A DNA stretch of 64,000 nt from Verrucomicrobiia bacterium (GTDB taxonomy: Bacteria > Verrucomicrobiota > Verrucomicrobiia > Limisphaerales > UBA11358). This document shows, piece by piece, positions 30,383 through 45,332 of the stretch. The stretch's first letter is position 1; each line of letters begins with the position of its first letter. Position numbers and translations under genes: made by a program. The DNA lies in assembly GCA_035545995.1 (NCBI GenBank), contig DASZXH010000053.1, positions 33,345 through 97,344 of the forward strand, written 5' to 3'. The notes below the pieces were generated by a model. That model made no database searches. It was not told the origin of the DNA and saw only the letters and a list, made by a program, of their open reading frames with translations.

Positions 30383-30427
30383 TCATATTTCCAAAACCTT
30401 CTCAAACCGTGTCAGATTTTTCGCGCC
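30383..30427 (-). pseudogene. orphan duplicate of the last 14 codons plus stop of the M24 peptidase gene
   Basis: It translates to GAKNLTRFEKVLEI*, identical to the end of the 33859..34983 gene. The two copies differ at 5 nt, all synonymous. It overlaps the stop codon of the 997-aa ORF by 1 nt. Confidence 0.8.
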
Positions 30428-33420
30428 TACTGGCCGCAGATGTTGGTGGCGACGACCATGGAGAAATAATCCACATCACCCCAATCCTGAATCACCACGC
30501 CAATGTCGTTGGTGCCGTAATGTAGCAGATTCGGCGCGACGTCGTTAAACGCTTTGAAGGATGACCAAACCGCATACATGTTATTGTTGTTTCTTGTGTC
30601 AATATAGACGCCATTGACATACAACCAGTAGACGTTGTCTATGGCGATGGCGTATTGCACCTGCGACAGGACGGCGTTGGTGGGAATATACAGGGCGATG
30701 TGATTTGTCCACGTTGAATCCACGGCATTCGTCGTGGGCGGCCAATAGGTGTTCGGCAACGGATCAAGATTGGGGTATTGATTCGTGCCATAGCTGGAAA
30801 ACGGCGCTTGCAGGTTGCCCAGATGCACCGGATGGTTGGTGTCGGATATATCCGTCACGTCCCAGACGGCGTTCGCCGGTATCAAATCGTTGGGATTTTG
30901 ACCGGACACGGCAATCTCGTTGGAGACGGGCGATTCATGGGTAATGCCGGTGGCATAATCGTAGGATTCAAACGTCACGATGTAATAGTTGGTCTGGCCG
31001 ACGGGAGCGTTGGTGTCCAGATAATTCATCTGGCCGGGGCTGTTGGTGGCGATGGCCGTGTAAGGGCCGCCGGAAACGGCGGAGCGGTAGACGATGAAAT
31101 CCTCAAGGTTGAGATTTTCCTGCTGGTCGTTGGCGTCCAGCGCCCAATCCAGTTGTGACACGATGCTGAAGGGATTGCAGTCTGGAAATAAAACCGGCCC
31201 GTCAACGAATTGCAGGGTGACGGTGCTCGTGGCCGCGTCGCCGCAATCATCACCGACATCAGCGACGATGTAATTGAAAGTGTCCGTGCCGGAGAAATTG
31301 GCGCCGGCGGGAAGGTAAATATAATTCGGGTCGGTGGACAACCCCGACACATTAGTCACCGTGCCATGCGCGGGCTGGAAGAGCGGGGCATAATAGGCTT
31401 CGCCGCAGCCATAATCCCCGCCGGACAGGGTGAAGCTGGCCGGGTTCGTGCCAAAGACCAGCGCCGTAACGGGATTGGCATAGAGTTGGTTGGCAATGGT
31501 TAACGTGACGGTGGCCGGAGTGGAAGTATATTGACCGTCGCTGGCCGTGAAGGTGAAACTATCCTGACCTTCATAACAGGAATTTGGAACGTAAGTGACA
31601 TTGGTCACCTCGCTGCCATAATTTTCATTGGTTACATAAGTTAATGTACCATGTGCGGGATAAGTCAAAATGGAAAAAGTCAATGGCAAGCCACTCTGTG
31701 CAAATGCGGTCAAAGTAATATTATTTGTTGAGTTCGGACATGGAGCTTCGTTATCGCCAAAAGCTATCGGATACACTTGGGGATTGGCGATGAGGTTGTT
31801 GGTGGCTGAATAATATGCCGGGTCAAGCAGGTAATTCGTGTTTTGCAGCAGCGTCAAAATGACAGTCTGGTTGGGTTTCAAGCCGTCGGCAATCGGGTTA
31901 ATATCAACCTCCGCATAACTTTGATTGGGAGAAATAGTGACCATGCCCGTAAGGTTGGAGTAATCAATGCCATTTTGCGCCGTGCCGCCGATGGAATAAT
32001 AAACGGTGACATCATTGGTATGCCGGCCTTGGTCAGCGATATAAAAGCCGCCGGAGTATCCCGGATCGTTGTTGGCGGGATTTGGCTCCTTTGAATCCCC
32101 AATGTCCACAATCACCATGACGGGATTGGCGTGATGCACGCGAAAGAAGGTTGTCGCATTGGTTATCGGCACGGGCGTAAAATCCATATAACTCCCGTAG
32201 GCGCTCGGCAAGATTTGCCCCAAGTCCCAATTGGTGTTCGACAAATTGGTGGTGGAAAGCAGTTGGTAGTTGTCGCCGCTTGCGGGGTTGTGCAACCGCA
32301 AGCCAAGATTGGGAGCTTCATTGCTGGCCTCCAACCATAAACCGTTAGGGTCAATCATCATCGGGGTAAAGCCATTGGGCTGATACTCTTCATTGGCGGG
32401 ATAGAGCATCTGCTGGATGAGCACGGCCATCGTTGCGGCTTGAGTTTGGGCGATGGCAGTCGCCTGCGCGGTGCTCATCCGTCCGGCGGATGCAGGCGCG
32501 AGTTGGCCGCCGGTGTCATCTACAATGAACTCGTTGTTGGTCACCGCATAAATCGGCAGGTCTGACAAACTGGACGGCAGGAAGGGAAAAGGCAGTGCCA
32601 TGAGGTTGTCGTCGGGACTGTTGGTCATTATCCAGAATGTTCCACTGTCAGGCAGGGACGCAGACGATACCGGAGTCAGTCCAGCTTCGTCGGCGGTAGC
32701 TTGCACAACGGAATCCGGTGTGGCATGAACAGATAGAACGGAAGCGGCAAATAATAATGGAACAATCAGCTTGCAACGACGCTTGAAGATATAAACTAAA
32801 AAGCAACTTACTCCAATTAAGGCTAAAGTGGAAGGCTCTGGCACAGAGACAATACCTTCTCGAAACCAGAAGTCTATAGTAGCCCCAGGTAGGCCATTAG
32901 AAAACAGTTGTCCATTGGAATAAGCGTCGTCAGTAAGAACTATTATATCCCACGGATCATCACCGGACAAAACGACTGGTTGCAGGTAATAAGTTTGGCC
33001 GGGAGTCAGGGTGATGGGAGTTGAAAAGAAGAAATTAGTGATGCCAGCAATGCCCAGACCACTATTTACAAATCCGTTGGGCATGAAAACAGGAGCGGTT
33101 GAACCGAGCAAGGTTGCGCCGAAACGAGGGTCTGGCGAACCTGTCCACAGTTCCACAGAAACCGTCGCGCCATTATTGCCATTGTTTGGAATGTCCCAAA
33201 ATTCAAGCGAGACAAATCCAATCGCCGAAAGTGAGGGAATAAAAGATTGCACCAATGGCGAATCTTCTTGGATGTTAAGGCCGTCCGCATTTCCATTGCC
33301 GATAACAGCTACTGGAGCGGTGGCCGACTGCTGGTCATAAACCAGCCCTTGCGCGTGAGCTTGGAGTGAAGCGGTGATAAGCATTACCGCACTGAATAAA
33401 CTGCCAATTATTCTTTTCAT
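30427..33420 (-). CDS. large secreted adhesin-like protein: N-terminal PEP-CTERM module fused to a Calx-beta / Ig-like / FN3 / lectin-like multidomain protein
   Basis: 997 aa. Signal peptide MKRIIGSLFSAVMLITASLQAHA. Internal VPEPSTLALIGVSCFLVYIFKRRCK (aa 193-217). Calx-beta-like VYYSIGGTAQNGIDYSNLTGMVTISPNQSYAEVDINPIADG. Ig-like DSFTFTASDGQYTSTPATVTLTI. FN3-like YRSAVSGGPYTAIA...NYYIVTF. AT-richer than its flanks. Confidence 0.8.
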   Translation of the reverse strand: MKRIIGSLFSAVMLITASLQAHAQGLVYDQQSATAPVAVIGNGNADGLNIQEDSPLVQSFIPSLSAIGFVSLEFWDIPNNGNNGATVSVELWTGSPDPRFGATLLGSTAPVFMPNGFVNSGLGIAGITNFFFSTPITLTPGQTYYLQPVVLSGDDPWDIIVLTDDAYSNGQLFSNGLPGATIDFWFREGIVSVPEPSTLALIGVSCFLVYIFKRRCKLIVPLLFAASVLSVHATPDSVVQATADEAGLTPVSSASLPDSGTFWIMTNSPDDNLMALPFPFLPSSLSDLPIYAVTNNEFIVDDTGGQLAPASAGRMSTAQATAIAQTQAATMAVLIQQMLYPANEEYQPNGFTPMMIDPNGLWLEASNEAPNLGLRLHNPASGDNYQLLSTTNLSNTNWDLGQILPSAYGSYMDFTPVPITNATTFFRVHHANPVMVIVDIGDSKEPNPANNDPGYSGGFYIADQGRHTNDVTVYYSIGGTAQNGIDYSNLTGMVTISPNQSYAEVDINPIADGLKPNQTVILTLLQNTNYLLDPAYYSATNNLIANPQVYPIAFGDNEAPCPNSTNNITLTAFAQSGLPLTFSILTYPAHGTLTYVTNENYGSEVTNVTYVPNSCYEGQDSFTFTASDGQYTSTPATVTLTIANQLYANPVTALVFGTNPASFTLSGGDYGCGEAYYAPLFQPAHGTVTNVSGLSTDPNYIYLPAGANFSGTDTFNYIVADVGDDCGDAATSTVTLQFVDGPVLFPDCNPFSIVSQLDWALDANDQQENLNLEDFIVYRSAVSGGPYTAIATNSPGQMNYLDTNAPVGQTNYYIVTFESYDYATGITHESPVSNEIAVSGQNPNDLIPANAVWDVTDISDTNHPVHLGNLQAPFSSYGTNQYPNLDPLPNTYWPPTTNAVDSTWTNHIALYIPTNAVLSQVQYAIAIDNVYWLYVNGVYIDTRNNNNMYAVWSSFKAFNDVAPNLLHYGTNDIGVVIQDWGDVDYFSMVVATNICGQ

Positions 33421-33555: not shown

Positions 33556-33786
33556 GTGGCTATTTCCAAAAAAGAATGGAAACGGATCGAGATTTTCGGC
33601 GCAAATGTCCGCCGTGAACGGGTGCGCAAAGGCTTGACGCAAGATGGATTGGCTGAAAGAGCCGAAATTGCCACGCGCAACCTCCAAAAAATTGAAGCAG
33701 GAGAAATAAATATTCTTGTCACGACCGCTTTCAGGATTCGATTGGCATTGCGATGTCCGTGGAAACGTTTAATGCCTCCTGAATGA
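33556..33786 (+). CDS. XRE-family helix-turn-helix transcriptional regulator
   Basis: 76 aa, GTG start. FGANVRRERVRKGLTQDGLAERAEIATRNLQKIEAGEINILVTT is a canonical Cro/C1-type HTH. Confidence 0.8.
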   Translation: MAISKKEWKRIEIFGANVRRERVRKGLTQDGLAERAEIATRNLQKIEAGEINILVTTAFRIRLALRCPWKRLMPPE

Positions 33787-33858: not shown

Positions 33859-34983
33859 TCAAATTTCCAAAACTTTCTCAAAGCGCGTCAGATTTTTTGC
33901 GCCGCTGGCAGTGACGAGCGCGACATCTTCCAAGCGCACGCCGCCGATTTCGGGATAATAAAGTCCCGGCTCGACGGTGACGACATGGCCGGTTTTCAAT
34001 TCGCCGGTCGAAGTCGCGCCCACGCGCGGCGCTTCATGGATTTCCAGTCCGAGTCCGTGGCCGGTGCCGTGAAAAAATCCTTCCATGCGCCCGTTGCACT
34101 TGCCGGTTTTGTAGCCGTGCTTCACAAAATAATCCTGAACGGCTTTGTGAACTTCCGCCGTTTTCACTTTGGCGCGGATTTTTTCAAACGCGATTTTTTG
34201 TCCCTGCCAGACAGTGTCATAAAGTTTTCGCGCCGCTTCGCTCGCGCGCCCGCGAACGACCGTGCGCGTGATGTCGCCGAAATAGCCGGTCTTTTGTGAG
34301 CGCGGGAAAATATCGAGGATAATCAGCTCATTGGCGCGCAACGGGCCGTAACCGCGTTCGTGCGGGTCGCAGGCTTGTTTGCCGCCGGCGACAATGGTGT
34401 TCGCCGCCAATCCGCTCGCCTGCAAAATCGCGCAGTCAATAATCGCGCGCAACCGTTCGGAAGTCAGTGGTGCACTGCGATAAATCAATTGCCGGCGTTT
34501 GCCGATTTTTGAAAGTTGCAGCGCGCGAATGCCTTCGGCCATGCCGACTTCCGCCATCGTCAGCGCGGCGGAAATTTTTTTCACTTCATCCGCGTTTTTG
34601 AATTCGCGTTTCGGGAAAAAATTCGACTGCGGTTTCAATTTGACGCCCAGCTTTTTCAATTCCCGCGCGAGGCCGAGCGGAAAATTGTCGGGAACGAGAA
34701 CGCGCTGGGATTTTTTCTCTCGCAAAATCTCGCGGATGATTTTGGCGAAGCTGATTTTTTTGACGCCGTCAGCGCGTAATTTTCTTTGATGTGCGCTCAA
34801 TGAGGCGACGCGGCAATGCGGCGCTTGCCGTCGTGCGCGGTCAATTTCCAAATCGCTCATCACGAGCAGCGGGCGTCCGCCGAAATTCAGGTAAATAAAC
34901 GGGTCGGGCACGAACAGGCCGGTGGCGTAAAGCATGTTCGCGTCGCGTTCGCTGTCGGCGACAATGAGCAATGTTTCGGGCAT
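33859..34983 (-). CDS. pepP: M24-family Xaa-Pro aminopeptidase
   Basis: 374 aa. Metal ligands in DIFPRSQKTGYFGDITRT, FHGTGHGLGLEIHE, VVTVEPGLY, GGVRLED. Confidence 0.9.
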   Translation of the reverse strand: MPETLLIVADSERDANMLYATGLFVPDPFIYLNFGGRPLLVMSDLEIDRARRQAPHCRVASLSAHQRKLRADGVKKISFAKIIREILREKKSQRVLVPDNFPLGLARELKKLGVKLKPQSNFFPKREFKNADEVKKISAALTMAEVGMAEGIRALQLSKIGKRRQLIYRSAPLTSERLRAIIDCAILQASGLAANTIVAGGKQACDPHERGYGPLRANELIILDIFPRSQKTGYFGDITRTVVRGRASEAARKLYDTVWQGQKIAFEKIRAKVKTAEVHKAVQDYFVKHGYKTGKCNGRMEGFFHGTGHGLGLEIHEAPRVGATSTGELKTGHVVTVEPGLYYPEIGGVRLEDVALVTASGAKNLTRFEKVLEI

Positions 34984-44624: not shown

Positions 44625-45332
44625 TTAGCTCCGGCGATTGCGATAAAAACCAATCAGACTGGCAGCACCTAAACCAAGCATTGCAAAAGTGGTAGGTTCG
44701 GGGACAGGAGACACGTTGCCGGGTGAGCCAATTTCTTTTCCGTCAGCCGAAAGAAACGCGCCATTCACACCGACAACACTTGCTTGTGAAATAGCGCCGC
44801 TCAATCCGGCAGTATTGTCAAAGGTGGCGCCGGTGGGAGCAGAGCCAAAAGTCACTCCGGTCACGGCATTGCCCGAACCGTCAAAGATATTCACGGCATC
44901 GCCGCTCGTGCTAAGCCCAACGCCTGAACCGCCATAATTTCCAATCGTTAATCCCACCGGCGCCGTGCCACCAAACCACGCGCTGATGAAATTTGCATCG
45001 AGCGTGGCGGTCGCAGTGGGTGACAAGAGGGCACCTCCACTACCATTAGGGTCGGTGTTTTCAATGAAGACAACAGTTTGCCCGGCTGCAATGCTGGTCA
45101 CGCCGGTAAGCGGAACCGCATTGGCGATTTTGTCTGAACTGTCATCCATTTCCCAGCCGGTGATGTCCACGGCTGAAGCGCCGGTGTTCTGGAGTTCAAA
45201 CCAGTCGGCGCCGTAGTCGGTATTGCCGCTGCCGGCCGGGTCAACTTCGGAAATGATGATTTGAGCTTGCGTGCAGACGGGCAATAAAGCGACCGCTGCG
45301 GTTGTCAGGGTTAAACGAGTCAGTTTTTTCAT
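44625..45332 (-). CDS. lamin-tail-domain (LTD) protein with PEP-CTERM sorting signal
   Basis: 235 aa. Signal peptide. LTD signature IISEVDPAGSGNTDYGADWFELQNTGASAVDITGWEMDDSS. C-terminal PVPEPTTFAMLGLGAASLIGFYRNRRS. Confidence 0.85.
   Translation of the reverse strand: MKKLTRLTLTTAAVALLPVCTQAQIIISEVDPAGSGNTDYGADWFELQNTGASAVDITGWEMDDSSDKIANAVPLTGVTSIAAGQTVVFIENTDPNGSGGALLSPTATATLDANFISAWFGGTAPVGLTIGNYGGSGVGLSTSGDAVNIFDGSGNAVTGVTFGSAPTGATFDNTAGLSGAISQASVVGVNGAFLSADGKEIGSPGNVSPVPEPTTFAMLGLGAASLIGFYRNRRS

Follow-up and report, generated by a model that had tools for sequence, protein, structure and literature searches.

The stretch of DNA analysed here, a window of 64,000 nucleotides from contig DASZXH010000053.1 of an uncultured Verrucomicrobiia bacterium, carries on its reverse strand a gene of 997 codons whose product contains a complete PEP-CTERM sorting signal in its interior, followed at once by a stretch that looks like a second signal peptide. 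The gene is real and selectively maintained; its layout is due neither to misassembly nor to a recent fusion that inactivated it. As judged from its sequence and those of its relatives, it probably encodes a two-module secretory precursor, derived from an old in-frame fusion, in which one chain would give two exported proteins.

Architecture of the putative precursor

The open reading frame (ORF) and its parts are the following (coordinates are those of the window).

30427..33420, minus strand: ORF of the putative two-module secretory precursor, 997 codons plus stop, a single open frame whose exact product is recorded in NCBI and Logan
33352..33420, minus strand: predicted signal peptide 1, residues 1-23 (MKRIIGSLFSAVMLITASLQAHA, followed by QG), with an n/h/c layout read from the sequence
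32845..33351, minus strand: module 1 domain, residues 24-192, a beta-sandwich according to AlphaFold2 (AF2), ending in an invariant W-F-x-E-G
32770..32844, minus strand: internal PEP-CTERM signal, residues 193-217, matched by TIGR02595 and PF07589
32722..32769, minus strand: H2, the second hydrophobic segment, residues 218-233 (LIVPLLFAASVLSVHA), defined from the homologue alignment and the stand-alone relatives
30430..32721, minus strand: module 2, residues 234-997 (764 residues), assigned from Pfam, AF2, Foldseek and homology to stand-alone secreted proteins

The internal signal (VPEPSTLALIGVSCFLVYIFKRRCK) consists of the motif VPEP, a helix of 16 residues (S197-F212) and the basic cluster KRRCK. 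TIGR02595 matches it over the whole model (1-24 of 24) and ends exactly at K217, with a score of 22.1 bits for a cut-off of 16. The score of PF07589 depends on the length of the query: it is 23.9 bits (cut-off 20.7) for residues 1-217 on their own, and 20.0 bits, just below the cut-off, for the full protein. The original prediction, made from the DNA letters only, had described a complete PEP-CTERM signal inside this ORF, running without a stop into a second signal peptide and with no start codon between the two. All of this holds: the frame is open over its 997 codons, KRRCK is directly followed by LIVPLLFAASVLSVHA, and the codons from V193 to V239 include no in-frame ATG, GTG or TTG.

Signal peptide 1 is conserved in the homologues (consensus ...AASxQTHAQG). 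The AF2 model of the 217-residue piece is a confident module 1 beta-sandwich, with a predicted local distance difference test (pLDDT) score of 86.8 and a predicted template-modelling (TM) score, pTM, of 0.77. Foldseek searches with this domain return only generic jelly-roll or carbohydrate-binding-module-like matches (TM at most 0.5), and it weakly matches NF041539, choice-of-anchor R (E 0.0065).

Module 2 starts directly after H2 with TPDSVVQATADEAGL (N-terminus TPDSVVQ). It is composed of a conserved N-terminal DSVVQATADEAGL domain, then Calx-beta-like, Big_9 and cadherin-like beta domains, and a conserved C-terminal domain which ends in CGQ. Big_9 (residues 563-641, 43.6 bits versus a gathering score of 23.6) and Cadherin_5 (30.6 versus 26.5) pass the Pfam thresholds. 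The full-chain AF2 model, compared by Foldseek, is a string of Ig/FN3/cadherin-like beta domains, the matches being multi-Ig, FN3 and cadherin chains of a generic kind. Calx-beta (PF03160) remains below its gathering score in the precursor, at 13.6 bits versus 27; relatives at loci L017 and L018 carry precomputed Calx-beta hits. The earlier label of a "Calx-beta/Ig/FN3 adhesin" is thus upheld for the Ig/FN3-like fold, and falls short for Calx-beta.

The C-terminus of the family, ...TN(T/I)CGQ (30430-30450, residues 991-997), is conserved, N993, C995 and G996 each being kept in at least 90% of the sequences. This motif is possibly involved in a disulfide, or is possibly another signal.

Reality and conservation of the junction

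An identical junction is found in an 885-residue fragment encoded on a separate Logan contig of 5.2 kb. The protein search returned about 68 close homologues from Verrucomicrobiae/Limisphaerales metagenomes, with 45-66% identity; the layout is kept in every full-length homologue that was read, and one of them, P0010, was found in two assemblies. No stop codon or frameshift after RRCK, which would have made two ordinary genes of the ORF, is present in the window, in the second assembly or in 32 full-length homologues.

These 32 homologues, which have 47-66% identity to the window protein, were aligned to map conservation. W185, F186, E188, G189, P194, E195 and P196 are invariant in all of them and K213 is kept in at least 90%. 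The first helix has 15-17 residues and the loop that follows has 4-7 residues, including 3-4 K/R.

A search with the first 217 residues gave 154 relatives, and 153 proteins with module 1 were retrieved over both protein searches. The hairpin is present and the chain continues in 92 of the 153, while 35 proteins of about 200 residues end just past the basic cluster, like ordinary PEP-CTERM proteins. Other tails are seen in 21 cases, resulting from frameshifts, deletions or read-through into flanking DNA. The comparison of orthologous loci that the original prediction had called for gives the same picture: the two parts are fused in these 92 proteins, and they exist as two neighbouring genes in distant relatives. 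Nor is there a lineage-specific decay, since the PEP motif does not vary and a clade of 98 sequences retains the layout. The search of 40 related species genomes found no orthologue; it gave partial domain matches only, which yielded stand-alone relatives of the modules.

H2 as a probable second export signal

By rule, H2 has the features of a signal peptide: a positive n-region (KRRCK), an h-region (LIVPLLFAASVLS) and a c-region V-H-A followed by T, with small residues at positions -3 and -1 and no proline at +1. The signal peptidase I site is predicted after A233. This signal-peptide-like stretch is not at the N-terminus of the chain, as it starts at residue 213. In the window precursor H2 has 14 uncharged residues, which is short for a stable membrane span. 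Across the 32 homologues its length varies from 14 to 22 uncharged residues, with insertions and deletions, and its sequence drifts while its hydrophobicity is kept. In the aligned homologues H2 always ends with a small-x-small pattern (VHA, YSA, IHA, VQA, VNA, TYA). A constrained PEP motif beside a drifting H2, which stays hydrophobic and keeps its c-region, is what two working signals would show at the level of sequence.

The stand-alone relatives at loci L002, L003, L007, L050 and L051 carry the same DSxVQ domain as module 2. It starts about 5-28 residues (as read from the sequences) behind an N-terminal signal peptide, which ends in HAQ, AQ or similar. By its position, H2 therefore corresponds to a genuine signal peptide.

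Natural variants of the family point in the same direction. In P0050, the single signal peptide is a hybrid whose n- and h-regions come from signal peptide 1 and whose c-region comes from H2; the reverse hybrid is found in P0076, where another copy of module 1 follows it. P0048 and P0063 are devoid of the module 1 domain and have kept the loop and H2. In other proteins, of which P0018, P0028, P0031, P0043, P0089 and P0097 are examples, the same module 1 and hairpin are joined to a different downstream N-terminal domain, and this alternative domain stands alone in P0071 and P0073, behind a signal peptide of its own. It therefore appears that H2 can be exchanged with a genuine signal peptide, and that it travels with the exported module which follows it.

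Three other interpretations of the junction were considered and rejected. A twin-arginine translocation (Tat) signal does not fit, because the RR pair is followed by C-K-L (S-K-L in relatives) instead of the S/T-R-R-x-F-L-K pattern, and because RR belongs to the basic cluster of every PEP-CTERM signal. By inspection, no cysteine is present past the c-region of H2, as a lipoprotein signal would have. Finally, the junction codons TGC AAG CTG are all sense codons, so that neither read-through of a stop codon nor an alternative genetic code is relevant.

Evolutionary origin

The two modules of distant relatives are encoded by separate, tightly packed neighbouring genes, with a divergent gene for an XRE-type helix-turn-helix (HTH) protein upstream in L017 and L018. 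Locus L017 (2983-7366) contains the HTH gene, the gene of a 906-residue adhesin and two small genes; the one that was queried (199 residues) is a PEP-CTERM gene of the module 1 type. Locus L018 (2287-6585) contains the HTH gene, adhesin pieces and two PEP-CTERM genes of the module 1 type. In L019 (2044-6639), the gene of a 660-residue adhesin is followed by four small genes, and no HTH gene is called upstream on the contig. The same pairing of an adhesin with a small PEP-CTERM gene is found in L004. These unfused operons hold 1-4 small PEP-CTERM genes each; their genes are separated by 8-15 nt or overlap, and their large proteins are homologous to residues ~250-560 of the window protein (E 5e-40 and 2e-21).

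A tree was built on the N-terminal domain alone, leaving out the sorting signal and everything downstream. In this tree, 16 proteins with a terminal signal only split from a clade of 98 sequences which holds all 79 fused ones (SH-aLRT 100). Another 19 sequences classified as terminal are scattered within the fused clade, and several of them have degenerate tails. One old fusion, retained for a long time and later lost in places, would be the simplest reading of these sequences. The original prediction had left two options, a deletion that joined adjacent genes or a genuine hairpin precursor. The first is correct as ancient history, in that the partners are separate neighbouring genes in distant relatives, and wrong as a recent event. 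The second is supported by the conserved layout, the invariant PEP motif and the single origin deduced from the tree. The best explanation of the data also has the two partner genes, one for a small PEP-CTERM protein and one for a large adhesin, functionally linked, which we regard as probable in view of the tight operons that they form in distant relatives.

At one locus, L052 (5351-8769), the precursor gene looks re-split: a gene encoding a 201-residue module 1 with a degenerate tail is followed, after a gap of 44 nt, by a gene of 922 codons. At the N-terminus of the latter's product, signal peptide 1 runs into the last part of the first helix, which is followed by the basic loop and H2, the form also seen in P0048 and P0063.

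Elsewhere in the phylum, some matches to the hairpin profile span 1-3 stop codons (for example G316:C15:48579-48713, G253:C1:360784-360912 and G111:C1:561923-562075). There, a terminal PEP-CTERM gene may be closely followed, in frame, by the signal peptide of the next gene, an arrangement that could be raw material for such fusions.

Occurrence in other protein families

A profile of the hairpin only (43 positions) was compared with 1.84 billion representative proteins. It gave 228 matches at E <=0.001, many of them with 2-10 matched stretches; P0196, for example, has 2500 residues and 10 matched stretches, and P0205, P0261 and P0199 are also multi-unit chains. In 91 of the 138 new proteins listed, one or more PEP-CTERM signals are internal and lead into a basic loop and then a further hydrophobic stretch. 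The module 1 motif is absent from 82 of these 91, which therefore belong to other families, with 1-8 junctions per chain.

The 120 junctions of these 82 proteins resemble that of the window gene. The median loop is 7 residues long, with 5 K/R, and only 8 acidic residues are found overall; the median length of H2 is 17 residues. A small-x-small pattern occurs near the end of H2 in 103 of the 120 junctions, versus 51 of 120 for the first helix, taken as a control. In the repeated-unit chains P0261, P0197, P0199 and P0283, H2 aligns with the N-terminal signal peptide of the first unit, and the residues after H2 repeat the mature N-terminus of that unit.

A second, family-specific hairpin profile was run against 300 genomes of the phylum, among which no second full-length match was found. 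The remaining matches listed stop near model position 24 or continue only across stop codons, and the 29 best loci that were fetched all have terminal signals. This profile is biased towards the precursor family and does not measure generality. The layout thus recurs, but is rare.

There is about an even chance that units of the type "signal peptide, domain, PEP-CTERM" alternating in one ORF represent a general and undescribed route to several exported proteins per chain, the window gene being a case with two units, the second of which is an adhesin with no tag. In such a general scheme, every PEP-CTERM helix would anchor the chain by stopping its transfer, the basic cluster behind it would also be the n-region of the signal peptide that comes next, and the units would be split by signal peptidase I and exosortase.

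Exosortase and PEP-CTERM proteins in the genome

The draft genome comprises 2.9 Mb in 91 contigs. The exosortase that the original prediction proposed to look for is encoded by one single gene, on contig C79 (PF09721, 137 bits; TIGR04178, 56 bits; TIGR02602, 105.8 bits for a cut-off of 105.55), which is adjoined by an EpsI-like gene and by the gene of a WecB/TagA-type glycosyltransferase. A six-frame search of the genome gives 21 PEP-CTERM hits, with 20 over the cut-off, and the internal signal ranks third by score (27.3 bits). The other PEP-CTERM-like signals picked up by a six-frame pattern scan of the genome are 24-35 residues from a stop, compared to 804 for the internal one. As 780 residues follow K217, the signal does not have the terminal position by which PEP-CTERM signals are recognised.

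At locus L053 (3994-10164), a fused homologue, P0045, is encoded directly upstream of an exosortase (PF09721), EpsI and a Bac_transf priming transferase. Just ahead of P0045 are a module 1 remnant of 199 residues and a truncated fused copy of 427 residues.

Proposed processing and alternative explanations

The processing scheme proposed here starts from the observed sequence and its conservation, from the homology of both halves to stand-alone genes and from the presence of an exosortase. Signal peptide 1 would bring the chain to the Sec machinery and be cut after AHA23, and the beta-sandwich domain of 170 residues would be exported. The PEP-CTERM helix (S197-F212) would then halt the transfer and leave KRRCK in the cytoplasm. 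With KRRCK as n-region, the 14-residue H2 stretch would re-enter the translocon in the N-in/C-out orientation, so that export of the next 764 residues restarts. Signal peptidase I would cut after VHA233 and free the adhesin-like module, with TPDSVVQ as its N-terminus. What remains held in the membrane would be an ordinary PEP-CTERM protein with a tail of 16 residues, which the single exosortase would process at PEP. One translation event would thus give two exported partners, in a 1:1 ratio and at one site.

Several observations weigh against this scheme. The topology and both cleavages are deduced, in the window protein and in its relatives alike, and signal peptides and their cleavage sites were called by rule rather than by a trained predictor. 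The model also requires an exosortase that accepts a PEP-CTERM signal trailed by a second hydrophobic segment. In the unfused operons, the adhesin gene precedes the PEP-CTERM gene, which is the reverse of the fused order, so that the fusion must have needed a rearrangement or a tandem array. Truncated or rearranged copies are numerous (the 21 other tails and the 19 degenerate "terminal" forms inside the fused clade), and no orthologue was found among 24 species genomes of the same genus. The full-chain AF2 model does not contain a packed hairpin either: residues 214-235 are unstructured, with pLDDT <50, a low confidence which is uninformative as to the topology, neither for nor against it.

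The most serious competitor, which we consider unlikely, is an uncleaved anchor: the two hydrophobic segments would form a permanent helical hairpin with no cut after VHA, the adhesin module would be tethered to the inner membrane, and exosortase, if it acts at all, would release or transfer module 1 only. Two hydrophobic segments separated by a short loop of charge +3/+4 are compatible with this layout, in some homologues H2 reaches 18-22 residues, enough to span the membrane, and the signal peptidase cut is itself predicted. The H2 of the window protein, however, has only its 14 uncharged residues. Moreover, H2 keeps its small-x-small end despite drifting elsewhere, and this motif is enriched in the junctions of other families; where module 2 stands alone in relatives, an ordinary signal peptide ending in an AxA-type motif takes the position of H2, and the only signal peptide of P0050 ends in the c-region of H2. 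It is rather improbable that the fusion has simply been tolerated, the internal PEP-CTERM being a vestigial tag that acts as a stop-transfer helix only, and module 1 a leftover or a membrane-bound pro-piece. This idea draws on the many rearranged or truncated copies of the family, and on the suggestion that PEP-CTERM signals with long tails are possibly non-functional (Haft et al. 2006, PMC1569441). Yet PEP and the preceding WF-EG are invariant in the 32 homologues despite their divergence, and the third rank of the signal in its own genome is the opposite of the decay described by Haft et al. One homologue (P0045) also lies directly beside an exosortase and EpsI, and module 1 still has a confident fold and many invariant residues.

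We see very little room for an internal translation start near the junction, by which the adhesin would be made alone and the fusion would be only apparent. CTG (L218) and ATT (I219) are rare alternative starts and the H2 of P0010 contains in-frame TTG codons, but those TTGs lie within the h-region and would yield a signal peptide devoid of its n-region. No standard start occurs from V193 to V239 in the window gene, no purine run resembling a Shine-Dalgarno sequence was seen just upstream of L218 in the codons inspected, and, module 1 having no stop codon, the full-length chain is made regardless. Hardly any weight can be given to an artefact or a pseudogene, that is, to two ordinary genes joined in this genome only, whether by faulty sequencing or assembly or by a recent deletion. 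The genome is indeed a draft in 91 contigs, but a separate Logan contig has the identical junction, about 90 relatives from many samples have the same junction with no stops, and the 764 further codons are open and encode confidently folded domains.

Surroundings of the gene in the window

Two further features flank the precursor gene.

33556..33786, plus strand: XRE-type HTH gene (76 residues), divergently transcribed, PF01381 at 32.2 bits, a conserved neighbour of the family
30383..30435, no strand assigned: second copy of the 3' end of an M24 peptidase gene, the first copy being at 33859-33910, with ~45 of 52 bases identical in the alignment

L016, L017 and L018 likewise have an HTH_3 gene upstream of their family genes. 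The last ~14 codons of the M24 peptidase gene are duplicated, and the two copies bracket a cassette of 3.47 kb that consists of the HTH gene and the precursor gene. The cassette resembles an insertion that duplicated its target; it contains no recombinase gene. This reading fits with the failure to find an orthologue in the same-genus genomes and with the different neighbours seen in L015. Elsewhere in the window, an ordinary PEP-CTERM protein is encoded at 44625-45332 on the minus strand; its terminal signal scores 25.1 bits (C53:77975-78049).

Relation to known systems

Canonical substrates of the PEP-CTERM/exosortase (EpsH, Xrt) system have a tripartite signal and an N-terminal signal peptide, as the precursor has a matching tripartite signal, a predicted signal peptide and, in the genome, an exosortase with an EpsI-like neighbour. 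The stand-alone relatives of module 1, of about 200 residues, are ordinary terminal PEP-CTERM proteins of this kind. Unlike them, the precursor has 780 residues after the signal, runs straight from it into a signal-peptide-like segment and leaves its last module untagged. The unfused operons of L017, L018, L019 and L004 share both types of protein and the HTH neighbour with the precursor gene, and differ from it by their separate genes, their stop codons and the reversed order. The multi-unit chains P0196, P0261 and P0199 have the same junction grammar (a PEP-CTERM signal, a basic loop and a signal-peptide-like stretch ending small-x-small); they differ in that they belong to other families, are made of repeated units and usually have a terminal PEP-CTERM on the last unit, which the second module of the window protein does not have.

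In flavivirus polyproteins (C-prM-E-NS1), an internal signal sequence comes after a stop-transfer helix and is cut by the host signal peptidase. By analogy, the logic proposed here would be the same: an anchor helix, a basic cytoplasmic loop, a segment that restarts transfer and has a signal-peptidase site, and several products. The precursor, in contrast, is encoded by a bacterial chromosomal gene, would use Sec and signal peptidase I and not the endoplasmic reticulum, and has an exosortase signal as its anchor helix; there is no sequence relationship. Thony-Meyer et al. are said to have reported in 1991 that FbcH of Bradyrhizobium japonicum, the precursor of cytochromes b and c1, is split at an internal signal peptide. 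FbcH would be analogous to the proposed precursor in being bacterial and in giving two membrane or periplasmic proteins from one gene by means of an internal signal-peptide-like segment. It differs in that it belongs to a respiratory complex, has no sorting tag and is a single known case rather than a recurrent modular layout.

In the founding paper on these signals, Haft et al. reported that 87% of them have <10 further residues; they set long-tailed signals aside as possibly non-functional and described atypically placed ones as decaying, the reverse of the pattern seen at this junction (Haft et al. 2006, PMC1569441). Apart from that remark, a search of the literature found no publication describing an internal PEP-CTERM followed by a signal peptide, in agreement with the view of the original prediction that no such arrangement had been described.

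PEP-CTERM signals are defined, annotated and searched as C-terminal tags, whereas the signal of this precursor is not terminal and is as well conserved as any terminal one. If the proposed processing is correct, the cycle of stop-transfer and re-initiation that is known mainly from viral polyproteins would also serve bacteria, for the delivery of partner surface proteins in a fixed ratio. Exosortase would accept a helix that is followed by another membrane segment, which would constrain the models of substrate recognition. Genome annotation and secretome prediction would then undercount exported products, and the internal signal changes how exosortase substrates are defined and counted.

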